Position numbers and translations under genes: made by a program. The notes under the pieces are model-generated. The model did no database searches. It worked only from the letters and a program-made list of their open reading frames with translations, and had not been told where the DNA came from. This document shows positions 12,336 through 27,705 of a DNA stretch of 64,000 nt, piece after piece. Origin of the DNA: an uncultured Solirubrobacterales bacterium (GTDB lineage Bacteria > Actinomycetota > Thermoleophilia > Solirubrobacterales > 70-9); contig CAVSJI010000002.1 in the NCBI GenBank assembly GCA_963728365.1, forward strand, positions 49,270-113,269. The letters are read 5' to 3'. Each line of letters opens with the position of its first letter. The stretch's first letter is position 1.

Positions 12336-13216
12336 GGAACGCGTGGTCGCGACTCGGCCTGCGCAGCCGGCTGGGGTTGACGGTGGCGACGATCGTCCTC
12401 GTCGCGATCGCCTTCGTCGGGCTCGCCGTGCGGCGCGAGGTGAGCGAGGCGATCGGCGCGGTGCTGATCGGCGGGGCGATCGGCCTCGTCGTCGCCTTCG
12501 TCGCCGGCCGCCTGCTCGAGGAGGCCTCCTCGCGCCAGCGCCAGTTCGTCGCCGACGCCTCGCACGAGCTGCGCACCCCACTGACCGCGATCCGCGGCCA
12601 GCTCGAAGTGCTGGCCCGCGATGAGAGTCCGGACGCCGCCGAGGTGCGCCGGGTCGAGGGCGTGGTGATGGTCGAGGTGACGCGGATCGAACGCTTGGTC
12701 GACGACATGCTGGCGCTGGCGCGGCTCGACGAGGGCGAGCCGCTGCGCACGATGGAGGTGCGGCTGCCCGAGTTCCTGCGCCGCTTCGGCGAGGACCCGG
12801 CGCTCGGCGCGGTGGCCCTCGGCGAGCTGCCGGAGGGCGCGCTGCGCGCCGATCCCGAGCGTCTCACCCAGGTGATCCGCAACCTGGTCGCCAACGCGCG
12901 CCGCCACGCCGGCCCCGGCGGCCGGGTCGAGCTCTCGGCGAGCGCCCACGGCGAGCGGCTCACGGTGCGGGTCGACGACGACGGCCCGGGCATCCCCCCG
13001 GCCGAGCGCGAGCGGGTCTTCGACCGCTTCCAGCGCAGCGCCGCCGCCCGCGACCGCGGCAGCGGCGGCAGCGGCCTCGGCCTGCCGATCGCCCGCTCGA
13101 TCGTCGAGCAGCACGGCGGCCGCATCTGGATCGAGGGCTCCCCCCTGGGCGGCGCCCGCGTCGCCTTCGAGCTAGACGGGTTCGAGCCGCCCCCGGCTCA
13201 ACTCGGCACGGCGTAG
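12332..13216 (+). CDS. Sensor histidine kinase (short, membrane anchored)
   Basis: H-box FVADASHELRTPLTAIRG, N-box IRNLVANARRH, G-box GSGGSGLGLPIARSIV. 4-nt overlap with the upstream response regulator. Confidence 0.9.
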   Translation: MRNAWSRLGLRSRLGLTVATIVLVAIAFVGLAVRREVSEAIGAVLIGGAIGLVVAFVAGRLLEEASSRQRQFVADASHELRTPLTAIRGQLEVLARDESPDAAEVRRVEGVVMVEVTRIERLVDDMLALARLDEGEPLRTMEVRLPEFLRRFGEDPALGAVALGELPEGALRADPERLTQVIRNLVANARRHAGPGGRVELSASAHGERLTVRVDDDGPGIPPAERERVFDRFQRSAAARDRGSGGSGLGLPIARSIVEQHGGRIWIEGSPLGGARVAFELDGFEPPPAQLGTA

Positions 13217-14259
13217 ATCTGGCCGCCGGATTCGACGACCTGCTTCGGGGCCAGGCCGGCCGGCGGCGGGCCGGCGATCACTTCGCCGGTTTCGGCGCTG
13301 TACTCGCCGCCGTGGCAAGGGCAGACGATCACGCCGCCCTGGTAGCCGACCGTACAGCCGGCGTGGGTGCAGACGGCGCTGAAGGCCATGAGGTCGCCCG
13401 CTTCGTCGCGGATCAGGATGTCGGGCGCGCCGTCGCCGGGGTCGGTGTAGGTGGCCGCCTGTCCGGCGGGCAGGCGCTTGCCCGGACCGAGGCGCACGGC
13501 GCCGCTGGGGACCGCGGAGCCGCCGCCGGACGCGGAGCTGCCGTTTCCACCTGAGCCGCCGTTGCCGCCGCCACCGCTGGAGGAACCGCCCCCACCTCCC
13601 GTCGCCGCGCCCGACCCACCCGAGAGCGTGCGCGCCGCCGTGTAGGTGCCCCTGGCGAGGGTCGAGATGCCGGCTATCGCGACCGCCATGCCGGCGAACT
13701 CGGCGAGCAGGACGCGGCGCGTGGTGACCGGGTCCGGCAGCGGTTCGCCCGCCTCGGCCGGGCGCAGGCGGGTGCGCCGCGCCAGCTCGCGCGAGCCGCG
13801 CTCGGTGAGGTTGTCGAGGGCGGGCTGGCCCTCGGCGCCGGCCAGCGCGAGGGGCAGCCAGGCAAAGGCGAAGACGAGGTCGGGCCCGAGGAAGTAGGGC
13901 GTCGTGTGCCAGCTCGCGGTGAGGAAGAGGAGGAAGTTGAGGGCCATGCCGCCGGCGGCGGCGACACGGGTGAAGAGCCCGGCGGTGGCGAGAAGCCCGA
14001 TCAGGATCTCGGTCACGGCGACGCCGATCCCGGCCAGCTCGGGGTGCGGCAGGGCGAAGGTGCGCAGGACGAACCCGCCTGGGGTGCCGGCGGCGAAGCC
14101 ATGCAGCTGGGTGCCGATGTAGGTCGATGCGCCGGCATGCAGGAAGCCTGGGTCGCTGAGCTTCTGGATGCCGGCGTAGACGAAGGTGGCGCCGAGGAAG
14201 AGGCGCAGGGGGAGCAGCGCCATCGCCGGCGATATCGAGCTCCTGCGCATCGGGGTCAA
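13198..14259 (-). CDS. DoxX-like membrane domain fused to a Rieske [2Fe-2S] domain via a Gly/Ser linker
   Basis: N-terminal multi-TM region (LRLFLGATFVYAGIQKL...). Linker GGGGGSSSGGGGNGGSGGNGSS. C-terminal CTHAGC...CPCHGG Rieske ligands. Confidence 0.75.
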   Translation of the reverse strand: MTPMRRSSISPAMALLPLRLFLGATFVYAGIQKLSDPGFLHAGASTYIGTQLHGFAAGTPGGFVLRTFALPHPELAGIGVAVTEILIGLLATAGLFTRVAAAGGMALNFLLFLTASWHTTPYFLGPDLVFAFAWLPLALAGAEGQPALDNLTERGSRELARRTRLRPAEAGEPLPDPVTTRRVLLAEFAGMAVAIAGISTLARGTYTAARTLSGGSGAATGGGGGSSSGGGGNGGSGGNGSSASGGGSAVPSGAVRLGPGKRLPAGQAATYTDPGDGAPDILIRDEAGDLMAFSAVCTHAGCTVGYQGGVIVCPCHGGEYSAETGEVIAGPPPAGLAPKQVVESGGQIYAVPS

Positions 14260-14357: not shown

Positions 14358-14978
14358 ATGTACAGCGAGGGCACCGCCACGGTTCGCGACGGGGTCGCCG
14401 GCAACGCCCGCCTGACCGGCGGCGCGGCAGTGGCGCTGCTTGTCCTGCTCGCCGCCGAGGGGGCGACGATCCCCTTCATCGGACAGCTGGTCGGCCCGCA
14501 CGTCTTCATCGGCATGCTGCTGATCCCGCCGGTCGCGCTGAAGCTGGGCAGCACCGGGTACCGCTTCGCCCGCTACTACACCGGCAGCCCGCCCTACCGG
14601 AGCAAGGGCCCCCCGTCCCTTGCCCTGCGGGTGCTCGCCCCCGGTGTCGTCCTGGCGACCGTCGCCCTCTTCGCCACCGGCGTGGCGCTGGCAGCGGTCG
14701 GCCCCGACGCCGCCGCCGCCAACTCGCTCAAGTTCCTCCACAAGGCGTTCTTCATCCTCTGGTTCGGCCTGATGACGATCCACGTCCTCGGCCACCTCCT
14801 CGAGCTGCCCAGCCTAGCCCTCCCCGACTGGCGCCGCCACGGCGGCCGCGAGGCGGCCCTGGCCGGCTCCGGCCTGCGCATAGCCCTGCTCGGCGCCTCG
14901 CTGCTCGCCGGCCTCGCCCTGGCCCTGGCGACCCTCTCCCTGATCGGCTCCTGGGCCGGCACCACGCTCGGCGGCTGA
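14358..14978 (+). CDS. Hypothetical polytopic membrane protein
   Basis: Four to five hydrophobic helices and high GC3. No motif recognised. Confidence 0.55.
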   Translation: MYSEGTATVRDGVAGNARLTGGAAVALLVLLAAEGATIPFIGQLVGPHVFIGMLLIPPVALKLGSTGYRFARYYTGSPPYRSKGPPSLALRVLAPGVVLATVALFATGVALAAVGPDAAAANSLKFLHKAFFILWFGLMTIHVLGHLLELPSLALPDWRRHGGREAALAGSGLRIALLGASLLAGLALALATLSLIGSWAGTTLGG

Positions 14979-15052: not shown

Positions 15053-15376
15053 TCAGTCGTCCGCGCCGCCGCTGTGCTCGCCGTCGCCGCCGTCGGAGTG
15101 CTGCGGTTTGGCGGGGGCGGGCGGGGTCGTGTAGGTCGGGGGCTCGGCTGATTCGGATGGTGTCGGCGTCGTGGGCGAGCTCTGGGTGCGATGCGGGTGG
15201 TGCTTGGCGCGATGCCGAGTGGGATTGGCGTGCTCGACGGCCCTGGGGGCCAGGGCGTCGCCGGCTGTCACCGGTTCGGAGGCGAGGCCGATCTGCTGGC
15301 TGGCCAGGCGGCTGGCGGCGAACGCCACCGCGGCGGCGATCAGGATGCCGAGCAGGGCGAGGCCGATCCAGCGCAT
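15053..15376 (-). CDS. Small membrane-anchored His/Pro/Thr-rich protein
   Basis: MRWIGLALLGILIAAAVAFAA anchor, then HANPTRHRAKHHPHRTQSSPTTPTP. Lies immediately downstream of the HK in the same operon. Start moved to ATG 15376. Confidence 0.5.
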   Translation of the reverse strand: MRWIGLALLGILIAAAVAFAASRLASQQIGLASEPVTAGDALAPRAVEHANPTRHRAKHHPHRTQSSPTTPTPSESAEPPTYTTPPAPAKPQHSDGGDGEHSGGADD

Positions 15377-15386
15377 CGCGGTCACC

Positions 15387-16739
15387 TTAGGAGCCCTCCG
15401 GCAAAGGGACGGCAAAGTCCGGTTGGGGCAGGGTGATGGTGGCTGTGGCGCCGCCGCCCTCGCGGGGGGCAAGGGTCACCTCGCCGCCCCACTGGCGGGC
15501 CAGCTCGCGGGCTATCGGCAGGCCGAGGCCGGTGCCGCCGGGGCCGTGGCGGCCGGCGCTGCCGCGGCGGAAGCGCTCGAAGACGGCGTCCTGCTCGGCC
15601 GGATCGAGACCGGGTCCGCGGTCGCGGACCTCGATCCCACTTGCGCCGGCGGCGATCTCGACGGTCGCCCCTGGGGGTGAGTAGCGCACCGCGTTCTCGA
15701 CAAGCGCGTCAAGCGCGCGGTCGAGGTCGGGCGACGCGCACCAGGCCTCCCCCGCCCCAGCGCGCACGGCACTCAGCTCGACCGAGCGCTCACCGGCCAG
15801 CGCCCGCCAGCGCTCCGCGGCACGGGCGGCGGCGGCGGCGAGGTCGACCCGCTCGCCCGGCAGTTCGTGCTCGCCGGCGCGGCTCAGCACGAGCAGCTCC
15901 TCGACGATCTGCGAGAGGCGGTCGATCTCGGCCATCGCCGCCTCGAGCTCGGCCGGGCCGGCTTCCCGCCCCGGCTCGGCCATCCCCTCGAGGCGCAGGC
16001 GCAGCCCGGTCAGCGGCGTGCGCAGCTGGTGCGAGGCGTCGGCGACGAAGTCGCGCTGGCCGCGCAGCAGGCGCTTGACCCGCTCGGTCATCTCGTTGAA
16101 GGCGCGCGCCAGCGAACGCTGCTCGCTGCTTCCTTCCACGGCCACGGTCGCGTCGAGATCTCCGGTCGCGACCCGGCGCGCCGCCACGTCCAACCGGCGG
16201 ATCGGCCGCGCGATCCGCTGCGCGACCACGGCCCCGGCGACGAGCCCGAGCAGCAGGACGACGCCGGCCAGGGCCGCCAGGTCGAGGATCGCGGTCTTCA
16301 CCGCACCGCTCACCGCGGAGACGCTCTGGGTCACCCGCACCGCGCCGTCCGGCCGGCCTTCGCTGAGCACCGGCGCCGAGGTGGCGAGAATCGAGGCGCC
16401 GAGCGTTTCGCTGTGGCGGGTGATCTGCTCGCCGTGGCCGCGCAGCGCCGCCCGCACCTCGGGCCGGTCGGCGTAGTCGCGGCCGGCCGGGGCGCCAGCC
16501 GAGTCGGCGATCAGGCGCCCGGCCGCGTTGACGACGATCACCCGGCCGCGCACGCTGTCGGCCGAGACGTTGACCAGGTTGCGCAGCGCCGGGCGCTGTG
16601 CGAGATCGAGCAGCTCCGCGGCGGAGGCGGCGACCACGTCGGCCTGGCTGCGCGCCTGGCCCTTGACCTCGGCGTCGACGCGGTCGCGCAGGCTGACCGC
16701 GAGCGGCACGCCGAGGGCGATCAGGGCCAGGGCCAGCAC
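15387..16739 (-). CDS. Sensor histidine kinase (two TM, HAMP, HisKA, HATPase)
   Basis: FVADASHQLRTPLTGLR, LVENAVRYSP, GTGLGLPIARELA. The start (GTG 16739) may lie further upstream, because the in-frame hydrophobic extension reaches the response regulator stop. Confidence 0.9.
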   Translation of the reverse strand: MLALALIALGVPLAVSLRDRVDAEVKGQARSQADVVAASAAELLDLAQRPALRNLVNVSADSVRGRVIVVNAAGRLIADSAGAPAGRDYADRPEVRAALRGHGEQITRHSETLGASILATSAPVLSEGRPDGAVRVTQSVSAVSGAVKTAILDLAALAGVVLLLGLVAGAVVAQRIARPIRRLDVAARRVATGDLDATVAVEGSSEQRSLARAFNEMTERVKRLLRGQRDFVADASHQLRTPLTGLRLRLEGMAEPGREAGPAELEAAMAEIDRLSQIVEELLVLSRAGEHELPGERVDLAAAAARAAERWRALAGERSVELSAVRAGAGEAWCASPDLDRALDALVENAVRYSPPGATVEIAAGASGIEVRDRGPGLDPAEQDAVFERFRRGSAGRHGPGGTGLGLPIARELARQWGGEVTLAPREGGGATATITLPQPDFAVPLPEGS

Positions 16740-16774: not shown

Positions 16775-17506
16775 TCAGGCCCGGGGCTCCTCGTCCTGCG
16801 GCGCGGCGAAGCGGAAGCCGACTCCGCGGACCGTCTCTATATATGTCGGGTCGTTGGGGTCGTCGCCGAGCTTGCGCCGCAACCAGCCGACGTGCACGTC
16901 GAGTGTCTTGGTCGAGCCGAACCAGTTGACGTCCCAGACCTTGGCCATCAGGTCCTCGCGCCTGACCACCCGGCCGGCGTGGCGCATCAGCTCGGCGAGC
17001 AGGTCGAACTCCTTGCGCGAGAGCTCGAGCTCGGCCCCGGCCAGAGTCGCGGTGCGCGCCGCCGGATCGATCCGCAGATCGCCGACCGCCATCGGCTTCA
17101 GCTCCGCGGTGCCGCCGTCGCGCGGAGCGCTGCGGCGCAGGACCGCGCGAATCCGCGAGATCGTCTCGCGGGCGCTGAACGGCTTGACCACGTAGTCGTC
17201 GGCGCCCAGCTCGAGTCCGACGATGCGGTCCATCTCGGTGCCGCGCGCGGTCAGCATCACGATCGGCACGTCGGAGCGGCGGCGCAGCTCGCGGCAGACA
17301 TCGCGGCCGTCGCCGTCGGGGAGGCTGAGGTCGAGCATCACCAGGTCGGGCTCGGCCTCCTCAGCCAACTCCAGGGCGCCGGCCGCGGTGCGGGTCACCA
17401 GCGGCTCGAAGCCGGCGCGGCGCAGCGCCTCGGCGAAGGGCTCGGAGATCGAGGCTTCGTCCTCGACCACGAGGATCCGGCCGCCGGGCGCCGCAGGGTC
17501 CGCCAT
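16775..17506 (-). CDS. OmpR/PhoB-family response regulator
   Basis: RILVVEDE...DLVMLDLSLPDGDG...VKPF receiver domain plus LDVHVGWLRRKL...TVRGVGFRF wHTH. Confidence 0.9.
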   Translation of the reverse strand: MADPAAPGGRILVVEDEASISEPFAEALRRAGFEPLVTRTAAGALELAEEAEPDLVMLDLSLPDGDGRDVCRELRRRSDVPIVMLTARGTEMDRIVGLELGADDYVVKPFSARETISRIRAVLRRSAPRDGGTAELKPMAVGDLRIDPAARTATLAGAELELSRKEFDLLAELMRHAGRVVRREDLMAKVWDVNWFGSTKTLDVHVGWLRRKLGDDPNDPTYIETVRGVGFRFAAPQDEEPRA

Positions 17507-17646
17507 GAACCCACTGTAACGCCGTCGCCGCGCACGGTTTGCGGGTAAATCGCAGGTTTTGCCCGTTCTTTACCCACGCCTTGGAGGGTCTTCAACGCGC
17601 CGCCCGCAGACTGCGCCTCAGTGCAATCGGCCAGGAGGAAGAGAAC

Positions 17647-18222
17647 GTGAACCGGAAGCTGAAGACACGACTTGCGGCGGGGCTGACGATCGTCGGCCTC
17701 GGTGGGCTGACCGGACTGGCGCTGAGCGCCGGCGGCCAGAAGGCGAACACGCTCGCCGACAAGCCGCTGATCCGGACCAAGGTGATCCACCGCACGATCC
17801 GGGTCACCAAGCACGTCAAGCCGAAACACCCGGTCGCGGCCGGCGGCGGCGCCTACGGCGGCAGCGCCGGCTACTCCGGCCCGTCCCCCGGCGTCACCAC
17901 GGGCGCGTCGTCCAGCGGCTCGTCCTCCTACGGGAGCTCCGGCTCCGCGCCGGTGACGACCGCGAGCAGCGGCGCCTCCTCGTCCCCGTCGGGCTCCTCG
18001 GGCGCGACCGCTCCGGTCACCACCCACAGCAGCGGCTCACACGGCGCCGGCTCGGGCGGCGGTGGCTCGGCCCCCGTGACCACGCAGACGAGCGGCGCCG
18101 GCGCAGAATCGGGCGGCGGCACCGGCACCCCGGTGACCACCGCCAGCAGCGGCGGCGGCGCGGCGGGTGGAGGAGGCGGCGAGGATGGCGGCGGCGAGAG
18201 CGAGGGCGGCGGCGATGACTGA
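17647..18222 (+). CDS. Membrane-anchored/secreted Gly-Ser-rich protein with five ~20-aa (A)PVTT-x-SG repeats
   Basis: GTG 17647 follows AGGAGGAAGAG. N-terminal anchor LAAGLTIVGLGGLTGLALSA. VTT codons at 17893, 17953, 18016, 18076 and 18133 give a period of 57-63 nt. TGAS, SGAS and SGAT tetrapeptides are present. Confidence 0.7.
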   Translation: MNRKLKTRLAAGLTIVGLGGLTGLALSAGGQKANTLADKPLIRTKVIHRTIRVTKHVKPKHPVAAGGGAYGGSAGYSGPSPGVTTGASSSGSSSYGSSGSAPVTTASSGASSSPSGSSGATAPVTTHSSGSHGAGSGGGGSAPVTTQTSGAGAESGGGTGTPVTTASSGGGAAGGGGGEDGGGESEGGGDD

Positions 18223-18496
18223 GCCGGCGGCCCGCGCGACCCGGCGACCGGGCCCCGCCCTGGTCGTCTGGGGCTCGATCGCCCTCTTCGCGGTTCTCTT
18301 CGCGCTGCTCACCTACCAGCTTGCCTCGAGCCAGCCGGCCACCCCGCGTCCCGTCCTGGTGCGCAAGGTGCTGAAGCGCAAGGTGATCACGACCTACGTG
18401 CCGACGCCTGGCCAGAACAGCGTCTCGGCCAGCGGCGGATCCCTCGGCGCGGAAGCCTCGCCGGCCTACGCCCCGGTCACCACCGGAGCCTCCTGA
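18215..18496 (+). CDS. Small single-pass membrane protein ending in PVTTGAS
   Basis: ATG 18215 makes an ATGA-type overlap with the upstream stop. TM VVWGSIALFAVLFALLTY. The C-terminal YAPVTTGAS stop lies 1 nt before the apbE ATG. Confidence 0.6.
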   Translation: MTEPAARATRRPGPALVVWGSIALFAVLFALLTYQLASSQPATPRPVLVRKVLKRKVITTYVPTPGQNSVSASGGSLGAEASPAYAPVTTGAS

Positions 18497-18497
18497 G

Positions 18498-19475
18498 ATG
18501 AGCGAGCACGACGTCACATTCGACGCGATGGGCTCGCACGTGCGGCTGCTGATCGGCGCGCCGGGGCCGGACATGGCGCCCGCCGCCGAGGCCGCCCGGG
18601 AAGCGCGGCGGCTGATCGAGGAGTTCGACGCAACCCTCTCCCGCTTCAAGCCCGAGAGCGAGCTCTGCGCCTTCAACGCCGACCCGCGCGAGCGCGTGCC
18701 GGCCTCCGAGCTGCTGCGCGCCGCGGTCGGCGCCGGCCTCGAGGCGGCCGAGCACAGCGGCGGCCTGGTCGACCCCACCCTGACCGACGAGATCGAGTCC
18801 GCCGGCTACGTCGCCTCGCGGGCCGGGATGCGCGGCGAGCCGCTCGAGGCCGCCCTGCGCGAGGCGCCCGCGCGGCGCCCGGCCCGTCCCAACCCGGCGG
18901 CGCGCTGGCGCGGCTTCGAGGTCGACGACGAGGCGGGGACGATCCGCCGCCCGCCGGGCGTGCGCTTCGACACCGGTGGCGCCGGCAAGGGCCTCGCAGC
19001 CGACCTGCTCGCCGCCCGCCTGCGCGGTTACTCGCGCTTCATCGTCGATTGCGGCGGCGACATCCGGATCGGCGGTCCCGGCGCCCTCGTCACCCCGTAT
19101 GAGGTCTTCGTCGAGCACCCTCTGACGGGAGAGCGCGCCTTCGTGCTGAAGCTCGGCTCGGGCGCCGTCGCCACCTCCGGCCTCAACGTGCGGATCTGGC
19201 GCGAGGCGAGCGGCCGCTTCGCCCACCACCTGCTCGACCCGGCAAGCGGCGAGCCGGCCTGGACTGGCCTGGTCGGCGCCACCGCGCTCGGCGACACCGC
19301 GGTCGAGGCAGAGACCTACGCCAAGGCGGCGCTGCTCTCCGGTCCCGAGCGCGGCCGCGAGGTGCTCGCCGCCCGCGGCGGCCTGCTCGTCCACGACGGC
19401 GGCGAGGTCGAGACGGTCGGACCGCTCGCCGCCAGACCCCGCATCCGCATCGCCAACCCGGCGCCGAGCGCATGA
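18498..19475 (+). CDS. apbE: FAD:protein FMN transferase (ApbE family)
   Basis: FDAMGSHVRL, LSRFKPESEL, DTGGAGKGLAADL and the overall ApbE layout. Confidence 0.85.
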   Translation: MSEHDVTFDAMGSHVRLLIGAPGPDMAPAAEAAREARRLIEEFDATLSRFKPESELCAFNADPRERVPASELLRAAVGAGLEAAEHSGGLVDPTLTDEIESAGYVASRAGMRGEPLEAALREAPARRPARPNPAARWRGFEVDDEAGTIRRPPGVRFDTGGAGKGLAADLLAARLRGYSRFIVDCGGDIRIGGPGALVTPYEVFVEHPLTGERAFVLKLGSGAVATSGLNVRIWREASGRFAHHLLDPASGEPAWTGLVGATALGDTAVEAETYAKAALLSGPERGREVLAARGGLLVHDGGEVETVGPLAARPRIRIANPAPSA

Positions 19476-20092
19476 ACCCCGCCGCGACCGAAACGCTGCA
19501 GACACACGGCTGGTGGATCGCCAGCCGCGCCTCGGGGCTGCTCGCCCTCGTCCTGGTGACGGTCTCGGTCGCGATCGGCCTGACGATGGCCGGCAAGGTG
19601 ATGCGCCGGCCCGGCCTCTCGCGCAAGCTGCTGGCGATCCACGAGCACACGGCAGTGGCCGGGATCGTCGCGATCGCCGTGCACGGCATCACCCTGCTCG
19701 GCGACCCCTGGCTCAACCCCGGCCCGAAGGGCATCGCGATCCCCTTCCTGATGAGCTTCCGGCCGCTCTGGACGGGGCTGGGCATACTCGGGGGCTACCT
19801 GGCGGCGCTGCTCGGGCTGAGCTTCTACTTCCGCAAGCGGATCGGGGCGAAGCTCTGGCGCAAGGCCCACCGAGCCACCGTCGCGGTCTGGCTGCTCGGG
19901 ATCGCCCACGCGATCGGCGCCGGCAGTGACGCCTCGGCCCCCTGGTTCCGCTGGTGGGTCGTGCTCACGACTCCGCCGATCGCCGGCCTCTTCGTCTACC
20001 GAACCCTGTCGCACGGCAGGGCGAAGAAGCGGCCGGCGGCCACCCCCAAACGTCAACCGGTCCGGGCGATCCCGGCCCTGGAGGAGGCATGA
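19472..20092 (+). CDS. Ferric-reductase-like (MsrQ/FRD-type) di-heme transmembrane protein
   Basis: Six hydrophobic helices with His pairs in LAIHEHTAVAGIVAIAVHGITLLGD and HRATVAVWLLGIAHAIG. 4-nt overlap with apbE. Confidence 0.75.
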   Translation: MNPAATETLQTHGWWIASRASGLLALVLVTVSVAIGLTMAGKVMRRPGLSRKLLAIHEHTAVAGIVAIAVHGITLLGDPWLNPGPKGIAIPFLMSFRPLWTGLGILGGYLAALLGLSFYFRKRIGAKLWRKAHRATVAVWLLGIAHAIGAGSDASAPWFRWWVVLTTPPIAGLFVYRTLSHGRAKKRPAATPKRQPVRAIPALEEA

Positions 20093-21285
20093 TGAAAGAC
20101 AGAGGAGTGCTGATCGTCGGCGGTGGGCTGGCGGCGCAGCGGTGCGCCGAGACGTTGCGGCGTCGCGGCTTCGACGGATCGGTGCGGATGGTCTGCGCCG
20201 AGCCCGACCCGCCCTATGACCGCCCGCCGCTCTCCAAGGAGCTGCTCGCCGGCGAGTTGGAGGAGGAGGCGGTCGCCTACCGGCCGGCCTGGTGGTACGA
20301 GGAAGCGGGCGTCGAGCTGCTGCTCGGCGACGCGGCTGAGGCGCTCGACTCGGTGGCGCGGCGGGTGCGGCTCGGGTCGGGGGCGGAGCTCGGCTACGAG
20401 CAGCTGCTGATCGCCACCGGCAGCGCTGCCCGGCGGCTGCCCTTCCTCGAGGGCTTCGAGAACGTGCACGCGCTGCGCACGCTGGCCGACGCGCGGCGGT
20501 TGCGCGCCGAGCTGGCGCCGGGGGCGCGGCTGGCGATCGTCGGCGCCGGCTTCATCGGCCAGGAGGTCGCCGCCACGGCGCGCCGCCTGGGCGCCGAGGT
20601 GTCCCTGATCGAGGCGCTGGAGACGCCGCTGGCGCCGATTCTCGGGGCGGAGCTGGGCGGCTGGTTCGCCGAGCTGCACACCGGCAAGGGCGTGCGGGTG
20701 CTGACCGGAGCGAGACTGGAGAGCGCCGCCGGTCGCGCCGGGCGCGCGCGCGAGCTGGTCCTCGAGGGCGGCGAGCGGATCGCCTGCGACGCGGTCGTGG
20801 TCGGGGTCGGCACGGCGCCGGCGACCGGGTGGCTGGCCGGCAGCGGGCTCGATGAGAACGGTGTCCGCACCGACGCCGCCGGGCGCACCGCGCTGCCCGG
20901 GGTCTTCGCCGCGGGCGACGCCTCGGTCCGCTTCGACCCGCGTACCGGAGAGCACGCCCGCACCGAGCACTGGGACGCGGCCGCCTGGCAGGGCGCCGCG
21001 GCGGCCAAGGCGATGCTCGGCGCGCAGCCGGGGACGCCGCCGCTGCCCAGCTTCTGGAGCGACCAGTACGGGATTCGGGTCCAGTACGTCGGCCACGCCC
21101 ACCGCGCCGACGCGGTGCGGATCGAGGGCGACCCGCAGGGCCGCGACTTCGAAGCGATCTTCACCAGCGACGGTGCCCCGGTCGCCGGCCTTGCTGTCGG
21201 CCGCCCGCGCTCGATCCCGATGCTGCGCAGGCAGATCGACCGGGCCGGCGCCCCGACTCACGACGAAGCGAAGGAGGCAGCATGA
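20089..21285 (+). CDS. FAD-dependent ferredoxin/rubredoxin reductase (pyridine nucleotide-disulfide oxidoreductase family)
   Basis: VLIVGGGLAAQRCAETLRRRG, YDRPPLSK, LAIVGAGFIGQEVAA, VFAAGD, EHWDAA. ATG 20089 forms an ATGA overlap. Confidence 0.9.
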   Translation: MMKDRGVLIVGGGLAAQRCAETLRRRGFDGSVRMVCAEPDPPYDRPPLSKELLAGELEEEAVAYRPAWWYEEAGVELLLGDAAEALDSVARRVRLGSGAELGYEQLLIATGSAARRLPFLEGFENVHALRTLADARRLRAELAPGARLAIVGAGFIGQEVAATARRLGAEVSLIEALETPLAPILGAELGGWFAELHTGKGVRVLTGARLESAAGRAGRARELVLEGGERIACDAVVVGVGTAPATGWLAGSGLDENGVRTDAAGRTALPGVFAAGDASVRFDPRTGEHARTEHWDAAAWQGAAAAKAMLGAQPGTPPLPSFWSDQYGIRVQYVGHAHRADAVRIEGDPQGRDFEAIFTSDGAPVAGLAVGRPRSIPMLRRQIDRAGAPTHDEAKEAA

Positions 21286-21488
21286 GCTACCGAGCAGTGG
21301 TCGACCCCGACGAGTGCAGCGCCCACGGCGACTGCGTGGAGGTCGCCCCGGAAGTCTTCCGCCTTGACGACACGGCCGTGGTGATCGGCACCGGCCCCTA
21401 TGAGTTGCTGCTCGAGGCGGCCGAGGCCTGCCCGGCGGTCGCGATCTCGATCGTCGACGAGGACTCGGGCGAGGCGGTCTACCCATGA
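21282..21488 (+). CDS. Small single-cluster ferredoxin
   Basis: 68 aa with DPDECSAHGDCVEVAPEVF...ACPVAAI. Overlaps the reductase stop. Confidence 0.85.
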   Translation: MSYRAVVDPDECSAHGDCVEVAPEVFRLDDTAVVIGTGPYELLLEAAEACPAVAISIVDEDSGEAVYP

Positions 21489-21508
21489 CCTTGTGGCGGT
21501 GAGGAAGC

Positions 21509-21663
21509 CGTCTCGATAGGGGTTCCGCTTAACCCCCGGCCGGGGGCGAGTCCGTCCCGGTAGGGGTTCCGCTTAACTTTTTCGGTGCATCGTCGGTGGG
21601 CTGGCGCCTCCAGCTCACGACGAAAAAGTACAAGACGCTCCACCCCTACCGGGACGGACTCGC
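21509..21663. repeat. Structured intergenic block: 17-nt direct repeat, GC hairpin and a 21-bp perfect inverted repeat
   Basis: TAGGGGTTCCGCTTAAC at 21517-21533 and 21561-21577. CCCCCGGCCGGGGG at 21533-21546. GCGAGTCCGTCCCGGTAGGGG at 21546-21566 pairs with 21643-21663. Inner stem CTTTTTCG (21577-21584) pairs with CGAAAAAG (21621-21628). The block lies between convergent genes. Confidence 0.8.
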
Positions 21664-22245
21664 GGTGCGCGCAGGAGCTGATTGAGACTGGGGCTCACCC
21701 GCGTTTTTGGTGAGCTTGCTCAGTAGCAGGATGGTGGCCGGGAGGGTGGGGATTGCTATTAGGAGGAGGAACCAGGGTTGGGTGGCGTCGGTGCCTGCGG
21801 TGAGGGTGTGGGCTATGCCGAGCAGCCAGAAGAGGGCGGTGAAGCGGTGCAGGGAGCGCCAGCGGGATTGGCCGATGGTGCGGCGGGCGTAGTAGGAGAG
21901 GCCGAGGGCGGCGAGGCCCCAGCCGGCGACGATCCCGATCCCGGTCCAGAAGGGGCGGTAGGCGCCGGTGAAGGGGACCGAGATGTCGAGCGGCGAGGGG
22001 TGCATGTAGTGGTCGCCGAGCAGCGCCACGCCGTGCACGGCGATCGCCACCAGAGTCGCCAGCGAGAGCGCCTCGTGCAGCGCCTTGGTGTCGCTGCCGA
22101 GGCCCTTCAACGCGCCGCCGCGCGAGCCGATCAGGAGGCCGGCGCCGACCGCGAGGCTCGAGAGGACGAGCGCCGCGGTGCCGGCGGCGCGACTGGTGAT
22201 CCAGAAGACGTGCGGCCCGGCGGAGACCGCGCCGGCGACGATCAC
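21646..22245 (-). CDS. Ferric-reductase-like di-heme transmembrane protein (paralogue of 19472-20092)
   Basis: LHEALSLATLVAIAVHGVALLGD and HRFTALFWLLGIAHTLT match the paralogue motif for motif. Confidence 0.75.
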   Translation of the reverse strand: MIVAGAVSAGPHVFWITSRAAGTAALVLSSLAVGAGLLIGSRGGALKGLGSDTKALHEALSLATLVAIAVHGVALLGDHYMHPSPLDISVPFTGAYRPFWTGIGIVAGWGLAALGLSYYARRTIGQSRWRSLHRFTALFWLLGIAHTLTAGTDATQPWFLLLIAIPTLPATILLLSKLTKNAGEPQSQSAPARTASPSR

Positions 22246-22631
22246 GAGGACGCGGTGACGACCGGTTCGGGTTCGGGCGCCGGTTCCGGTTCGACTTCGG
22301 CGAATTCTTCTTCGATCGCTTCCGCCTCAGGCGCGAATTCTTCTTCCGGTTCGGGTTCGAGCGCCGGTTCGTCCTCGTCGGAGGTTTCCGGTTCGGGCGC
22401 CGCCTGCGGTTCGGTCGCCGCCACCGAGTGCCGGCCGGCCCGCTTCGGCGCGCTGCTCAGCGCCGGGTCGTTGCCGCTCACCAGCTGGGCGAAGACGATC
22501 GCCCAGACCGCGGCGAAAAGCGCCAGCGAGCCGCGCAGCGTGCGCCGCCGGATCGTCGCCACCCGCCGCCGCCTCGCCCTGACCTTGGCCCGGGCCAGGC
22601 CCTTCGCCTCGAGTCGCGTGGTCTCGTCCAT
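22242..22631 (-). CDS. Small single-pass membrane protein with acidic Pro/Glu-rich ectodomain ending in PVVTASS
   Basis: Basic N-terminus, TM LALFAAVWAIVFAQLV, then EPEPEEEF.. repeats. 4-nt overlap with the downstream FRD gene. Confidence 0.6.
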   Translation of the reverse strand: MDETTRLEAKGLARAKVRARRRRVATIRRRTLRGSLALFAAVWAIVFAQLVSGNDPALSSAPKRAGRHSVAATEPQAAPEPETSDEDEPALEPEPEEEFAPEAEAIEEEFAEVEPEPAPEPEPVVTASS

Positions 22632-22709
22632 GCCCGAGATGCTCCGGGCGGATTCCTAAGCGCCGCCAAAAGTCAGGTAAGAAAGCTCTTACAGCTAGGC
22701 TGCCCGGCC

Positions 22710-23222: not shown

Positions 23223-24770
23223 TCACCCGCCGAGCTTGAAGGCGACGATCTGCGCTTCCTGGCCGGCCGCGGCGGCGAGCCCGGCCGGCGCGATCAGCAT
23301 GTCGCCCTCGGCCATCACGCCTGAGTTGGTCCCGGCTGGCAGGCTCTGACGCCAGACCACCTGGCCCGACTTCGCGTCGAAGGCGCTGACCACGCCTTCG
23401 GAGGACGTGGCGAAGACGAGGTCGTTGACCACGGTGGTCGCGCCGAACGCCGGGGTGGAGAGCTTTTCCTTCCACTTGACCTTGCCCGTGGCCAGGTCGA
23501 GTGCCGCGACTTCGCCGCTCGGAGTACCGTTTTCCACCGTTTCGCTGCCCGAGACCAGTTCGATCGCGTTGTTGACGATTGGCACGAAGACCGACTTGCC
23601 GTCGGTCGACGCCGGCGCAATCACGCCGCCCAACGAGCCGGGGTAAAGGGTCCCGGTCTTGATCTTCGACTCTTCGCCGCGCATCGCCAGCAGGCCGTCT
23701 TCATCGTGGCCGTTGTGTTCGCCGACGGCGCGCTTCCAGATTGTCTTGCCGGTCTTCGGGTCGGCGGCGAGCACGATGCCCGACTTGCCCGCGGCGACGA
23801 CGATTTCGCGACCGCCCGACTGGGTGAGAATCGGCGGGCCCTGGAAATCCCAGTCGTGGAGATCGTGCGGAGTGACCTGGTTGTACCACTCGAGCTTGCC
23901 GGTCTTGGCGTTGAGCTTGACCAGCGAGTCGGTGTAGAGGTTGGGCCCGGGACGGCTCGAGCCCCAGGGGTATTTGCCGGTTCCCGGAAAGGGCGCCGGG
24001 TTGCCGACCCCGATGTACATCGAGCCCTTGCCGTCGAAGGCCGGCGGGTACCAGACGCCGCCGCCGGCGTTGACCGTCGGCTTGCCCCAGAGGTCCTCGG
24101 GCACCGTGTCGAAATGCCACTTTTTCTTACCCGTCTTCGCGTCGAGCCCCCAGAGGATGCCGACGCCGCCGCCTTCGTAGAGCTCGTTGGCGTTGAGCGG
24201 CACGGTCGAGACGTAGACCATCCCGGCGTCGTAGCCGGGGGCCATGTCGATGCCCTCGTGTTCGTTGCGGGTGAGTTTCACCGACCAGAGCTCTTCGCCA
24301 CTTTCCTGGTCGAGGGCGAAGGCTTCGGTCGGCGTCGCGCCGAAGACCTTGCCTTCGGAGACGACGACCCCATTCGGCCCCTCGTCGGGCTGTTCGAAGC
24401 TGGCGTTCCAGAGCACCTTGCCCGATTCGAGGTCGAGCGCCTGCACGTTGGAGGCGAGATCCTGCGAGTAGATCACGCCCTTGTCGATCACAGGAGTGGA
24501 GGCGTAGCTGCCGAAGTTGCTTTCGCCGGTGATCGGCGCGCTCCAGGCTTCACTGAGGCTGGTGACGTTGGAGCTGTTGATTTCGCTCGGGGCGCTGCGG
24601 GTGTTCGCTGCGTCGACTCCGGGGAAGCCGGAGCCGGTGAAGCTGGCTTCGCCGCCCGAGGACGAGGACGAGCCGCCACAGCCGCCAATCGCCAGCGCCG
24701 CGACGAGGGCCGCCGCTACGAAAGGCCCGGCAGCGCGCATCGGCCAGTTCCCCCTGCTCAGACTGGTCAT
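23223..24770 (-). CDS. Lipoprotein with PQQ-like/BamB-like beta-propeller repeats
   Basis: Lipobox LAIGGC. Repeated G.V(Y/F)..(T/D)..G.L.A.D..TGK..W blades. 4-nt overlap with the upstream flavoprotein gene. Confidence 0.7.
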   Translation of the reverse strand: MTSLSRGNWPMRAAGPFVAAALVAALAIGGCGGSSSSSGGEASFTGSGFPGVDAANTRSAPSEINSSNVTSLSEAWSAPITGESNFGSYASTPVIDKGVIYSQDLASNVQALDLESGKVLWNASFEQPDEGPNGVVVSEGKVFGATPTEAFALDQESGEELWSVKLTRNEHEGIDMAPGYDAGMVYVSTVPLNANELYEGGGVGILWGLDAKTGKKKWHFDTVPEDLWGKPTVNAGGGVWYPPAFDGKGSMYIGVGNPAPFPGTGKYPWGSSRPGPNLYTDSLVKLNAKTGKLEWYNQVTPHDLHDWDFQGPPILTQSGGREIVVAAGKSGIVLAADPKTGKTIWKRAVGEHNGHDEDGLLAMRGEESKIKTGTLYPGSLGGVIAPASTDGKSVFVPIVNNAIELVSGSETVENGTPSGEVAALDLATGKVKWKEKLSTPAFGATTVVNDLVFATSSEGVVSAFDAKSGQVVWRQSLPAGTNSGVMAEGDMLIAPAGLAAAAGQEAQIVAFKLGG

Positions 24771-26095
24771 TGCGCGACCCTATGCGATTGTTTTGTACCT
24801 GTCAAATAATCTCGGACAATTGGCTGAAGGACCCGGTTGGAGAGCAGGCCGAGCGCCCCGAGGTTGGCGAAGCCGGGGCCCTGACTGAGCCCGGCGAGGC
24901 CCGGGATGTGCAGGCGGGGGCTCATGCCGCGCAGCTCCAGATGGCGGCCGATCGGCACCTCGGTTCCCGCCGGCCGGTCCCAAACCTGGCCCACCTGGCG
25001 CTCGATCTCCTCGCGCACGGCGGCCGGGAAGAGGGTGCGCAGCTGGGCCAGCAGGTCGAATCCGGTGCAGTTGGCGACGAAGTCGTGCTCGCTTCCGGCC
25101 GGCCCCTCCGGCGATTCGTACTCGAGCCGCACACCCGCCCCGTCGCGGGTCGCGCCGACGTCGGTGACCCGGCCGGTGAGGAAGCGACAGCGATCGTCGT
25201 AGGCGATCTTGTCGAGGCTCGGCGGGTCGAAGACGCCGCGGTCGGAATGCTTGACGAAGTCGCGGCGCGTCTGCAGGTCGAGCGACTCCCATTCGACCGT
25301 GTCGGGATTGGAGAAGACGCGGTTCTCGAGGAAGCTCTCGCCGCGGCTCATCGGCAGCATCGGCGTGTAGATCGTGAAGCGGCAGTCCGGCCGCATCTCG
25401 CGCAGGAACATCGTCGCGCTGAGGGCGCTCTCGCCGCCGCCGACGATCGCCACGTCCTGCTCACAGCCCTCGGGAATGCGGGCGAACTCCTCGCGGCGGC
25501 TGTCGCAGTGGAAGACCCGCCCCTCGACCGCCGGCTCGTGCGGAAAGGCGCGGTGGATTCCCGGCCCGGTGAGGACCAGCGCCCGCCCGCGGTGACGCGA
25601 GGCGCCCTGGGGCCGCTCGGCCTCGACCAGCCACCCCTCCGCGTCCTCCTCGAGCCGCACCTGCGTGACCCGGGCGCGCAGATGCTCGACCCCCTCGGTC
25701 GCCTTGCCGAGGACCCAGGTGAGGTACTCGCCGTAGTCGCGGTGGCGGACCTGCGGCGAGCCGGCGTCGACCCAGCGCGCGTAGCGGCGGGTGGCGATCA
25801 TGAACTGCTGCCAGGTGAACTGGCCGAGGGCCGCGTCGACCGCCTCGCCGGCCTCGCCGAACTCGATGTGGCTCTGGTAGGGGAAGCCGATGTCCTTGAT
25901 CGGGGTTACCGCCAGCGGCTCCTCGCCCGAGGTCATCCCGTTGCGCCCCTTCCAGGAAGCGGCGGCCTCGGTGCTCTCGATCACCAGCGCCGAGATCCGG
26001 GCGAGGCCGAGAGCGTTGAGGACGTGGACCTTTGTCGCGATCCCCGCCGCCTTGGCGCCGGCGCCGACGACGATCAGGTCGTGGCGCTCGCTCAT
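24767..26095 (-). CDS. FAD/NAD(P)-binding flavoprotein monooxygenase, SidA/IucD/PvdA-like N-hydroxylase (tentative)
   Basis: Two dinucleotide folds, LIVVGAGAKAAG and VAIVGGGESA, plus a WKGRNGM block. Subfamily assignment is from memory only. Confidence 0.55.
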   Translation of the reverse strand: MSERHDLIVVGAGAKAAGIATKVHVLNALGLARISALVIESTEAAASWKGRNGMTSGEEPLAVTPIKDIGFPYQSHIEFGEAGEAVDAALGQFTWQQFMIATRRYARWVDAGSPQVRHRDYGEYLTWVLGKATEGVEHLRARVTQVRLEEDAEGWLVEAERPQGASRHRGRALVLTGPGIHRAFPHEPAVEGRVFHCDSRREEFARIPEGCEQDVAIVGGGESALSATMFLREMRPDCRFTIYTPMLPMSRGESFLENRVFSNPDTVEWESLDLQTRRDFVKHSDRGVFDPPSLDKIAYDDRCRFLTGRVTDVGATRDGAGVRLEYESPEGPAGSEHDFVANCTGFDLLAQLRTLFPAAVREEIERQVGQVWDRPAGTEVPIGRHLELRGMSPRLHIPGLAGLSQGPGFANLGALGLLSNRVLQPIVRDYLTGTKQSHRVAQ

Positions 26096-27705
26096 GCCAG
26101 GGCGGGGGTTCGGGGGCGGGCGACGACCAGGCCGTGGTCGGCGGGGCTGAAGGAGATCGCGGCGCGGGCGATCCGCTCGCCGCCGGACTCGACCGGCTCG
26201 AGGTCGACCTCCTCGAGCACGGTGCGCAGCACCCGCTTCATCTCCTGTTCGGCGTAGCTGGCGGCGAGGCAGCGGCGGGCGCCGCCGCCGAAGGGGATCC
26301 AGGTCGGCACCGCGGCGCGCTGGGTGAGGAAGCGCTCGGGGATGAACTCGCTTGGGCTCTCATAGACGTCCTCGCGATGGTGGACGAGGTAGACGCAGGG
26401 CGCGATCAGCGTCCCGGCCGACAGCTCGTAGCCGCCCAGCGTCGCCGGCTTCAAGAGGCGCCGGACGACGACCGAGACCGGCGGGCGCAGGCGCAGGGTC
26501 TCCTTGACCACCGCGTCGAGGTACTCGTCTCCCCCGCCCTCGCGGACTTCTCCCTGCAGGCGCTCCAGCTTGTCCGGGTGGCGCAGGAGTCGCTCGAAGA
26601 CCCAGGCGAGCGAGCTCGAGGTCGGGCCGTCGGTGAGCAGGGTGAGCAGTTCGTCGCGCAGCTCTTTCTCGCTGAGCGGCGCGCCCTGCTCGTCGCGGGC
26701 GTCGACGAGGATCGAGACCGCATCGCGGCGGCCGTCCTCGCCTTCGTCCCGGCGGCGGCGCGCCTCGGCGAGCACGGCGTCCTCGACCGGGTCCATCGCC
26801 GTTCGCCAGCCGGGTTCCGCTTCGAGCCAGTCCGAGCCGAAGAGGGCCAGCTTCAAGAGCCGATCGGGGTCGTTGATCGCCTCGGTCAGGTTGGTGAGCA
26901 GGCCGCGCAGCGGGTCGAGCCGCCCCTCGTCGTCGCCGAAGACCGCGCGCATCACCACCTCCTGGGTGAGCTCCTGCATCCGCGGCCATAGCGCGAAGGG
27001 CTCGCCGGCCGGCCAGGAGCGCACTGCCTGGCGAGCCAGCTCGGTCATCGCCCCGGCGTCCTCGCGCATCCGCTCGCCGTGAAAGCGGGGCAGCATCATC
27101 TTGCGGCGCACCATGTGCTCGGGCTCCTCGCTGAGCATCACCGAGTGGGCGCCGAGGACGGGGCGCAGGGCCAGGTTCGGCATGCCGACGCCGAGCTCGT
27201 CGGTGCCGGTCGAGAAGACGCGTTTGACGTCCTCGGGGTCGGAGAGCAGGACCCAGGTGCCGAGGTGGCGCAGGCGCAGGGTGAAGGTGTCGCCGAAACG
27301 CTCGCGACACTGCTCGAGCATCGGCAGCGGCTCGTAGGCCCAGCGCATCGATTGGACCATCTCCGGGTCCTCAGGGCCCGGCGGCAGGCCGGCGTCGGAG
27401 TCGGCAGCCGCGCTCGCCGCGCCGGGCTCGGCCATCAGCTCGTCCTCGAGCTTGCAGGTGGCGCCGATCAAGAGCTCGAAGAGCTCGGCGGTGAAGTCCT
27501 CGGGCAGCCCCGCCTCGGCGCCGCGCGCCAGGTAGCGGGAGCAGACTTGGGCCACCCGCTCGGGCTGCATCATCGGGATCCCGTGCTCGCCCTTGTACTC
27601 GGCGACTTCGCGGCAGATCTGAAAGCGCTCGCCAAGCAGCCGCGCGATCTCCGCATCGATCGGGTCCAACCGCTCCCGAAACCCTGTGAGGCTCGCGTCG
27701 CTCAT
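26092..27705 (-). CDS. AroQ-type chorismate-mutase-like domain fused to a cytochrome P450
   Basis: N-terminal ~95 aa: FRERLDPIDAEIARLLGERFQICREVAEYKGEHGIPMMQPERVAQV (AroQ pattern). C-terminal ETLRLRPP (ExxR) and FGGGARRCLA heme-Cys loop (~26262-26295). Confidence 0.8.
   Translation of the reverse strand: MSDASLTGFRERLDPIDAEIARLLGERFQICREVAEYKGEHGIPMMQPERVAQVCSRYLARGAEAGLPEDFTAELFELLIGATCKLEDELMAEPGAASAAADSDAGLPPGPEDPEMVQSMRWAYEPLPMLEQCRERFGDTFTLRLRHLGTWVLLSDPEDVKRVFSTGTDELGVGMPNLALRPVLGAHSVMLSEEPEHMVRRKMMLPRFHGERMREDAGAMTELARQAVRSWPAGEPFALWPRMQELTQEVVMRAVFGDDEGRLDPLRGLLTNLTEAINDPDRLLKLALFGSDWLEAEPGWRTAMDPVEDAVLAEARRRRDEGEDGRRDAVSILVDARDEQGAPLSEKELRDELLTLLTDGPTSSSLAWVFERLLRHPDKLERLQGEVREGGGDEYLDAVVKETLRLRPPVSVVVRRLLKPATLGGYELSAGTLIAPCVYLVHHREDVYESPSEFIPERFLTQRAAVPTWIPFGGGARRCLAASYAEQEMKRVLRTVLEEVDLEPVESGGERIARAAISFSPADHGLVVARPRTPALA

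Follow-up and report, generated by a model that had tools for sequence, protein, structure and literature searches.

Conserved heptads beside ApbE and di-haem membrane proteins in Solirubrobacterales: candidate flavinylation sites without a flavin-binding domain

Flavinylation by ApbE is a widespread bacterial route for moving electrons outside the cytosol, and an apbE gene without a recognizable substrate beside it raises the question of which protein, if any, receives the flavin. Such a locus lies in a 64,000-nucleotide (nt) stretch of DNA from an uncultured Solirubrobacterales bacterium (GenBank assembly GCA_963728365.1, contig CAVSJI010000002.1, positions 49,270 to 113,269 of the forward strand), referred to below, at its full length, as the window and numbered from its first letter. 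An operon in this window encodes a small anchored protein with tandem repeats (A), an ApbE flavin transferase, a ferric-reductase-type membrane protein (FRD1), a ferredoxin–NAD(P)+ reductase (FdR) and a ferredoxin (Fd). An earlier sequence-only reading proposed that A might be a compact multi-flavinylated electron conduit, and it relied on [S/T]GA[S/T] motifs within the repeats. ApbE is known to move flavin mononucleotide (FMN) from flavin adenine dinucleotide (FAD) to the last Ser/Thr of the motif D-x-x-[S/T]-G-A-[S/T], for which seven residues are enough (PMC12052999). In the alignments described here, the conserved unit of the A repeats is the heptad P-V-(T/V)-T-x-x-S(-G), not [S/T]GA[S/T], and the same heptad recurs as a C-terminal tag in further small membrane proteins that are encoded beside apbE and FRD genes. 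A multi-flavinylated conduit is still a possible reading of the locus, but it rests on a motif and a neighbouring gene other than those originally cited.

A heptad conserved in a disordered, membrane-anchored protein family

Gene A (17647..18222, + strand) encodes 191 amino acids (aa) from a GTG start, with AGGAGG 9 nt upstream. Its basic N-terminus precedes a hydrophobic segment (residues 9-29; 17671..17733, +) in which LGGL.G.AL is nearly invariant in the family alignment; the segment is a signal-anchor or, as a further possibility, a signal peptide that is cleaved. Residues 39-62 are strongly basic (KPLIRTKVIHRTIRVTKHVKPKHP) and form the highly conserved juxtamembrane motif KP(L/V)V(R/H)TKVIRRT(I/V)HVTKHAKPKHP (17761..17832, +; predicted local distance difference test score (pLDDT) of about 79), in which T44, V46, R49 and T50 are invariant across the family alignment and which is paralogous to the stretch RPVxVRKVIKRRVVTT of a neighbouring gene, B. 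The basic stretch is followed by a Gly/Ser-rich region, in which five heptads are set between Gly/Ser spacers, and then by an acidic end (GEDGGGESEGGGDD). The heptads read GVTTGAS (17890..17910), PVTTASS (17950..17970), PVTTHSS (18013..18033), PVTTQTS (18073..18093) and PVTTASS (18130..18150), all on the + strand, and the first is the sole copy in A with an in-register TGAS.

The five repeats are real, as had been read from the sequence: none of 100,000 composition-preserving shuffles of the A tail reached five heptads, the maximum being three, and the VTT codons stand at the positions given for them, with spacings of 60, 63, 60 and 57 nt. Throughout the six-frame open reading frames (ORFs) of the window (115,000 aa), the pattern PVxTxxS occurs eight times, six of them in A, B and a third gene, C. 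Tandem Repeats Finder, run over 17500-18600, reported no 57-63-nt array, and a DNA repeat search recovered a 36-nt core in four copies of 69-75 % identity. The codons of the heptads vary from copy to copy while the encoded residues stay the same; because of this, the repeats are judged to be old, the peptide having been maintained by selection.

At least 120 homologues of A were found, with E-values down to 1e-41; none carries a Pfam domain, and those whose source is named are labelled Solirubrobacterales, bar one 'Chloroflexota' metagenome-assembled genome. The homologues share one architecture, consisting of the anchor, the near-invariant basic motif, the heptads and an acidic end like 'EVEHESEGGGDD', and the number of heptads ranges from one to five per protein (two to five in all but two of 121). 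From these 121 proteins, 444 heptads were collected with a search pattern that required T4 and S7. Position 1 is P in 79 % of them, position 2 is V in 92 %, position 3 is T (58 %) or V (21 %), and G follows the Ser in 80 %; position 5 (-2 relative to the last Ser) is G (54 %), A (18 %), S (13 %) or H (10 %), and position 6 (-1) is S (60 %), T (26 %) or A (11 %). In an unconstrained MAFFT alignment of 32 A-family proteins, the P, V, T and S columns were at least 90 % conserved in three aligned heptads, although the overall identity of the aligned proteins is only 34-70 % and the spacers vary freely.

The [S/T]GA[S/T] motif fares differently. TGAS (17899), SGAS (17968) and SGAT (17998) do occur in A at the positions reported for them, but only TGAS lies in register within a repeat, whereas SGAS and SGAT fall in the variable spacers, so that SGA[ST] is not a part of the repeat unit. 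Family-wide, an in-register [S/T]GA[S/T] is present in 32 of the 444 heptads (7 %); of the 121 proteins, 95 lack it in register, and in 67 the tail contains no copy at all. The matches that had been relied on are mostly composition-driven chance occurrences and are not conserved, in contrast to PV(T/V)TxxS.

Variants of the heptad were seen in several members of the family. In some (L040 2793-3623; also loci L005 and L010) four or five PV(V/T)THTSG repeats are separated by His-rich spacers (SHGSHRSHGGRHHS), a composition that hints at metal binding by the tail. In a more distant Solirubrobacteraceae locus (L071 7968-9274), heptads have Arg or His at -2 (PVRTRTSG, PVRTHTSG), B ends in APVTRTS, and an extra A-like gene stands between A and B.

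As had been proposed, no folded FMN-binding domain is apparent in A, which has no Pfam or NCBIfam match. Its AlphaFold2 model, computed with the family alignment, has a mean pLDDT of 51, with most of the repeat region below 50, and a helix at residues 6-19 is the sole predicted structure. By these predictions, A is a membrane-anchored, intrinsically disordered protein. A sortase substrate of the LPXTG or LAxTG kind, or any other C-terminal sorting signal, was considered and ruled out, there being no transmembrane (TM) segment or basic tail after the motif.

Tag proteins, ApbE and FRD as a linked module

The sequence-only reading placed A immediately upstream of apbE, but a 93-codon gene, B (18215..18496, +), stands between them. 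B encodes a single-pass membrane protein paralogous to A; its start overlaps the A stop (ATGACTGA), and its stop lies 1 nt ahead of the apbE ATG. The protein has one TM helix, a basic motif (RPVLVRKVLKRKVITTYVPTPG) like that of A and no Pfam or NCBIfam match, and it ends in PVTTGAS-COOH (18473..18493, +), the best match in the locus to the seven-residue ApbE motif. Conservation of B was followed in a sample of 80 species-level genomes, with one A locus each. Homologues were detected by tblastn in 78 of the 80 loci, a divergent one was recognized in L071 by ORF inspection, and in L081/L082 the gene had been called independently with a length of 105 aa. The extracted ORFs end in T-x-x-S in 76 of 78 cases, the other two being frameshifted assemblies. 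The tags comprise TSAS (36), TGAS (28), TSSS (7), TATS (3), TSTS (1) and TAAS (1); T[S/G]AS accounts for 64 of the 76 (84 %), and Ala occupies position -1 in 66 (87 %). Judged by its tag, B is the best candidate ApbE substrate of the locus. An RR pair just ahead of the TM helix, mostly as RRP(G/S)P, is found in 62 of the 78 orthologues and does not correspond to the canonical consensus for twin-arginine translocation (Tat).

A programmed frameshift joining B to ApbE was ruled out, as the spacing between the two genes differs among species. At L058 (7992-9371) most of B and ApbE is missing, and the N-terminus of B runs straight into the final ~30 residues of ApbE, with A and FRD intact. This locus was rejected as a natural ApbE-less variant; it is a deletion or assembly remnant and is uninformative.

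The apbE gene itself (18498..19475, +) encodes a 325-aa ApbE-family FAD:protein FMN transferase (Pfam PF02424, E 4.8e-41), which aligns to E. coli ApbE (2O18, 4XGV and 4XGW), including the HHLLDP, ATSG and GGxGKG stretches. Its end overlaps by 4 nt (ATGA) the start of FRD1 (19472..20092, +), a ferric-reductase-type (MsrQ-like) di-haem membrane protein that matches PF01794 with 29 bits against a 28-bit cutoff. Four His residues are invariant among FRD proteins (H57, H71, H133 and H146 in FRD1), consistent with two haems. A PDB sequence search with FRD1 returned nothing useful, and an AlphaFold2 model built from a two-sequence alignment (pLDDT 56) shows five long helices at low confidence. The genes for FdR (20086..21285, +; Pyr_redox_2 and Reductase_C) and for Fd, a small single-cluster ferredoxin (21282..21488, +; Fer4_13), complete the series, both assigned by Pfam. 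The gene content that had been named for the operon (ApbE, Ferric_reduct, Pyr_redox_2 reductase and Fer4 ferredoxin) was thus confirmed by Pfam throughout. Because all six genes abut or overlap, the segment from A to Fd is one translationally coupled operon; a promoter and terminator scan of 17450-22700 gave nothing above background.

Across the 80 loci, an ApbE homologue follows A in every case. It is full length in 74, the remainder lying at contig ends or frameshifts, together with the deletion remnant L058. In 76 loci FRD comes next, and its absence from the others is due to contig ends or a threshold artefact; 71 loci have FdR, 68 have Fd, and a divergent pair of response regulator and histidine kinase genes is found in 77. 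Independent gene calls give the same order (A, B, ApbE, Ferric_reduct, Pyr_redox_2, Fer4), and in their precomputed Pfam annotation no FMN_bind gene lies within 10 kb of the locus. Since five genomes have A-B-ApbE-FRD without FdR-Fd, the core consists of four genes. The A-B-apbE-FRD1-(FdR-Fd) arrangement is a tightly coupled operon conserved across Solirubrobacterales. The same repeat type accordingly occurs beside apbE elsewhere, both at all A loci and, as described below, in a paralogous module, and not as a spacer detached from ApbE. The proposal of a complete path from NAD(P)H to the outside meets with complications: ApbE has neither signal peptide nor anchor, and FdR and Fd are missing in some species and from the minimal module.

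A third tag protein of the window is encoded by gene C (22242..22631, -), whose stop overlaps, through GTGA, the start of FRD2 (21646..22245, -), a second ferric-reductase-type di-haem membrane protein; this pair is convergent with the A operon. C is 129 aa long and spans the membrane once: a very basic N-terminus is followed by one TM helix and a Glu/Pro-rich acidic tail that ends in PVVTASS-COOH (22245..22265, -). Its Pfam and NCBIfam matches are weak and compositional (Trypan_PARP, TonB), and no curated family in either collection covers A, B or C. As in B, the tags of C-type proteins are the very last residues. Among the best 120 C-type database homologues, all 120 end in T-x-x-S, and the median net charge changes from +10 ahead of the TM helix (N side) to -20 behind it (C side), a pattern that indicates an N-in, C-out orientation.

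In the 80 loci, 97 ORFs with a TM segment and a terminal tag were found, and they fall into four types. The B-type is followed by ApbE1 and then FRD1; the C-type, with its acidic spacer, is followed by FRD2; the C'-type, which ends in ...TSQS, is followed by ApbE2 and then an FRD gene; and the D-type, which ends in ...PPVVTSSS, sits after Fd and is followed by FRD3. In these loci, no FRD gene lacks a tag protein of its own upstream. When 1.84 billion representatives were searched with a profile, 761 tag-protein clusters at 50 % identity were obtained. The T-x-x-S end is present in 134 of the 149 best, diverse representatives, and in the most diverse group, which is also the largest, Q stands at -1 (TSQS in 53, TGQS in 35).

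A separate 'mini-A' family (~85-95 aa) was also observed, with an MxNRRAK start, a TM segment, two internal heptads (VVTSASG and PPIVTRASGG) and a ...DD end. It occurs at L010 4454-4705 and at ~40 other loci (e.g. L013 4853-5197), either at a distance of 3-4 kb upstream from A or immediately behind C'-ApbE2-FRD; there is none in this window.

The C'-type tag gene, ApbE2 and FRD constitute a minimal module, in which each junction is a 4-nt overlap and the flanks differ. The linkage was traced further in 80 soil loci obtained by scanning Joint Genome Institute (JGI) metagenomes with the C'-type alignment: an ApbE start lies within 150 nt of the tag gene stop in 50 of 51 testable loci, and FRD comes next in 34 of 34. 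With only three genes in the module, the ApbE substrate must be either the tag protein or FRD, and FRD has no conserved Ser/Thr motif of the kind found in ApbE substrates. Its loop 'AG(S/T)DA(S/T)' was considered as a flavinylation site and ruled out, the last residue being S, T, G or A. Inspection of the FdR and Fd sequences disclosed no [ST]GA[ST]-like site, and a Pfam scan of 20 proteins around the window locus found no FMN_bind.

The genes surrounding the operon include some conserved neighbours. The divergent OmpR-type response regulator (16775..17506, -) and the HAMP/HisKA histidine kinase (15387..16739, -) are followed, just downstream of the kinase, by a conserved small single-pass protein (15056-15376, -), which is 66 % identical to L081 7412-7771; its tail is rich in Pro/Thr, its end (GGADD) is acidic, and it has no heptad. 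A multi-pass membrane protein with a weak cytochrome b561 match (14358..14978, +; PF01292, E 4e-4, below the cutoff) may be part of the system; a clear homologue, recognized by eye, stands beside a paralogous C'-ApbE2-FRD cluster (L010 1701-2324), and genes of ~197-198 aa without a Pfam match occupy the same position in the metagenome loci L083 (6350-6943), L085 and L087. Near the cluster, the protein encoded at 13198-14259 (-) has the unusual architecture of a DoxD/DoxX membrane domain joined through a long Gly/Ser linker to a C-terminal Rieske [2Fe-2S] domain. Elsewhere in the window, a cytochrome P450 carries a chorismate mutase type II domain at its N-terminus, and its gene stands in line with those for a lysine/ornithine N-monooxygenase-like flavoprotein and for an enzyme of the histone-deacetylase family (26092-27705, 24767-26095 and 27702-28721, all -); the row may be a small biosynthetic cluster. 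There are also two very long ORFs with coding-like GC3, at 1214-8272 (-) and 44325-52688 (+), of 2352 and 2787 codons, respectively.

Flavinylation of the heptads and its rivals

Considered as a class, the heptads may be divergent, domain-free ApbE flavinylation sites, a reading which the comparative evidence brings close to, but not as far as, being probable; confidence is higher for the B tag than for the internal repeats of A. By the mechanism proposed here, ApbE would move FMN from FAD onto the invariant last Ser of the heptad, the counterpart of the acceptor in the known motif. On this view, B and C, as subunits of the FRD cytochromes, would each hold a single flavin, and A, a flexible tether with several flavins, would pass electrons on to points more distant from the membrane. 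NAD(P)H would supply the electrons, via FdR and Fd in genomes that have them, and the two FRD haems would take them across the membrane. Since ApbE has no export signal, the modification may be cytoplasmic and precede export; that a cytoplasmic ApbE loads the unstructured tail in this way is speculative, and Tat export of a pre-loaded B would be speculation as well. An unfolded peptide could permit loading before export, whereas a loaded, folded FMN-binding domain would be harder to export. The single N-in helix of B or C could complete a six-helix FRD bundle like that of other FRD-domain proteins: the charge pattern of FRD1 and FRD2 suggests an N-out orientation, and five long helices are predicted, with low confidence. 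From such comparisons we infer FMN attachment and the residue concerned, together with where the electrons flow and what finally accepts them. The complete picture, in which the heptads are natural 'flavin tags', bare seven-residue motifs that are loaded before export with one FMN on the tip of each B or C protein, a long acidic or basic tether (one per FRD), and up to five along A, and that shuttle electrons from a di-haem cytochrome through a Gram-positive-type envelope, is offered tentatively, as less likely than not.

Several points weigh against flavinylation of the heptads. Neither ApbE1 nor ApbE2 has a signal peptide, lipobox or TM segment, as judged by inspection of their N-termini, and ApbE1 starts (MSEHDVTFDAMGSH) right after the B stop, which leaves no room for a signal at any locus. 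Because ApbE is signal-less and the C-type tails are predicted to lie outside, enzyme and site are apparently in different compartments; either the tails are loaded before export, or ApbE reaches the outside by some other route, or the idea is wrong. The topology of A and B is ambiguous, with a basic stretch after the TM segment. The residues at -2/-1 include H-T, S-Q and R-T rather than G-A, the Solirubrobacteraceae tag being T-R-T-S, and no characterized ApbE substrate in the cited literature has such residues there; the conserved Asp of the known motif is moreover replaced by Pro. The tag proteins have no flavin pocket, and the flavin would be solvent-exposed unless docked on FRD. The A repeats and the B tag show no clear covariation, and the case for flavinylation is comparative throughout.

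The rival that survives best holds that the heptad is some other recognition element, with ApbE acting on another cytoplasmic substrate or in FRD maturation. Candidate roles include O-glycosylation of Thr/Ser, strand or peptide docking on FRD or a partner, and a C-terminal handle for a PDZ-type protein. Ser/Thr/Pro-rich stretches of actinobacterial envelope proteins are often O-mannosylated. The absence of an export signal from ApbE beside tails that look extracytoplasmic, the departure of the -2/-1 residues from G-A and the existence of cytoplasmic ApbEs with cytoplasmic substrates in K. pneumoniae (PMC12052999) all speak for this explanation. However, the three-gene module offers no other candidate ApbE substrate; FdR and Fd lack an [ST]GA[ST] site, and FMN_bind is missing both from the 10 kb around the loci and from the 20 scanned window proteins. 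It is not usual for glycosylation sequons to sit invariably at the very C-terminus of hundreds of proteins, and in length and in the placing of its hydroxyls (positions 4 and 7) the heptad agrees with the ApbE motif. A different recognition role is considered unlikely. A link to the PDZ/S41 C-terminal protease encoded downstream in L081 and L084 was ruled out, as that gene belongs to a separate ftsEX-ctp-rnr-smpB block and is not adjacent in the window.

According to a narrower explanation, which we judge to be decidedly unlikely, only the terminal B- and C-type tags are modified and the internal repeats of A are not, A being a drifted paralogue of B. A would then serve as a flexible spacer or scaffold, as a metal-binding tail (in view of the His-rich spacers and the acidic EVEHESE..DD end) or as a docking or competitor element. 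It is favoured by the closer approach of B to the canonical motif: Ala at -1 and T[S/G]AS predominate there at the frequencies given above, while the A repeats, mostly T-G-S-S-G, T-H-T-S-G or T-A-S-S-G, reach only 11 % for Ala at -1 and 7 % for in-register matches. The better performance of engineered tags at termini than at internal sites, as summarized in PMC12052999, the range of one to five copies in the A family, with His-rich spacers in some members, and the lack of covariation between A and B tags point in the same direction. On the other hand, the A heptads share the P, V, T and S of the tags, conserved at 90 % or more in the unconstrained alignment, while the spacers are free, and these shared columns suggest that the same recognition acts on A heptads and tags. 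Equally non-canonical are the C-type tags in which -1 is S or Q, yet these stand right beside ApbE, and mini-A has internal T-S-A-S-G and T-R-A-S-G sites.

The last alternative, a plain low-complexity Gly/Ser cell-wall spacer whose apbE neighbourhood is inherited synteny without function, could appeal to the Gly/Ser-rich, disordered tail, the lack of a clean DNA array by Tandem Repeats Finder and the compositional origin of two of the three [ST]GA[ST] matches, but it is highly improbable and effectively refuted by the conservation and linkage data, namely the failure of every shuffle to give five heptads, P, V, T and S columns that stay conserved in proteins 34-70 % identical, heptad codons that differ between copies while the peptide is kept, and the recurrence of the heptad, never apart from FRD and ApbE, in another four types of paralogous small protein, one instance being the module in unrelated flanks.

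If the heptads, as the flavinylation reading has it, are modified, the engineers' minimal seven-residue flavin-tag would already exist in nature, and some 'orphan' apbE genes would gain a candidate substrate. With neither signal peptides nor known domains anywhere in it, such a cluster would have gone unnoticed in previous surveys. It would also represent a new electron-transfer architecture, with flavins on flexible tethers as opposed to packed domains or free shuttles. Should flavinylation fail, a strongly conserved C-terminal tag that is paired obligately with a haem protein and ApbE would still need an explanation.

Comparison with known ApbE systems

The known seven-residue motif tolerates some variation. 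Replacement of its Asp by Ala has a minor effect, Gly-to-Ala and Ala-to-Val mutants keep ~50 % flavinylation, and Ser is less well accepted than Thr as the acceptor (PMC12052999). The heptad has the same length, hydroxyls at positions 4 and 7 and mostly small residues between them, but it has Pro in place of Asp at position 1. Engineered seven-residue flavin-tags, according to the summary of Tong et al. in PMC12052999, work best at a protein terminus and less well internally, and the heptad is terminal in the B-, C-, C'- and D-type proteins, like the best-working of these tags. The engineered tag works without a folded flavin-binding domain; it is, however, synthetic and keeps Asp1 and G-A, whereas the natural heptads have Pro1, S/G/A/H at -2 and A/S/T/Q at -1, and their modification, unlike that of the engineered tag, is putative.

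In the cited literature, ApbE substrates are either folded (FMN_bind, NqrB/RnfD, DUF2271, Flavodoxin_4, FMN_red) or belong to an annotated domain (DUF3570). In Lactococcus, FMN_red proteins receive their flavin on a C-terminal extension that is unstructured (Huang et al. 2024, PMC11334425), and they resemble the tag proteins in the location of the site on such a tail and in the co-localization of the gene with apbE. The Lactococcus tail nevertheless folds back onto the flavin-binding site of its own FMN_red domain, while the tag proteins have no folded domain, and any flavin pocket would therefore have to come from FRD.

Multi-FMN-bind 'beads on a string' proteins such as SaFMN3 and CbFMN4 are extracytosolic, carry 3-13 predicted covalent FMN sites and have been proposed as long-distance electron carriers (PMC10339131, PMC11334425). 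Like A, they are N-terminally anchored. Each of their sites lies in a folded domain of ~120-160 aa, in contrast to the period of ~20 aa and the lack of a fold in A; a modified A would hold several times as many flavins per residue, on a flexible chain. The C-type proteins, for their part, recall the TonB-type Glu/Pro-rich spacers that span the periplasm, since they combine an N-terminal anchor with an acidic spacer rich in (E-P)n, and many are named 'TonB' by JGI. The TonB C-terminal domain is missing, as is ExbBD, and the scores are far below the cutoffs, so the likeness is compositional only.

Among the closest known systems are the MsrQ-like clusters, which in Actinobacteria typically comprise apbE together with a gene whose product has an FMN-binding domain (Meheust et al. 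2021, eLife, PMC8238504). FRD1 is a PF01794 gene within five genes of apbE, the arrangement by which that survey recognizes MsrQ-like systems. The survey also filtered for a signal peptide or lipidation site on the product of an ApbE, FMN_bind, DUF2271 or DUF3570 gene; inspection of the N-terminus revealed no such signal on the window ApbE, and the three domains are absent from the cluster. Because of this filter, the survey would have dropped these clusters, and the text of its supplement, as searched, contains no mention of Solirubrobacter, Conexibacter, Thermoleophilia or Patulibacter. No identified substrate accompanies apbE in ~4 % of apbE-bearing genomes (PMC8238504), and full-text literature searches found no account of the heptad-tag/ApbE/FRD arrangement. 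The present clusters share with the MsrQ-like ones an apbE gene beside a PF01794 di-haem protein, a small membrane-anchored protein and a cytosolic NAD(P)H-linked donor. They differ from them in the substrate, which in the surveyed clusters is a PF04205 protein and here has no FMN_bind domain, and in the donor, which there is often an FAD/NAD-binding domain fused to MsrQ and here is a separate FdR and Fd pair or absent. The tag proteins occupy the genomic slot of the usual FMN-binding-domain substrate. The cluster is MsrQ-like and ApbE-associated, with the substrate slot held by short, putatively flavinylated tags on disordered tethers.

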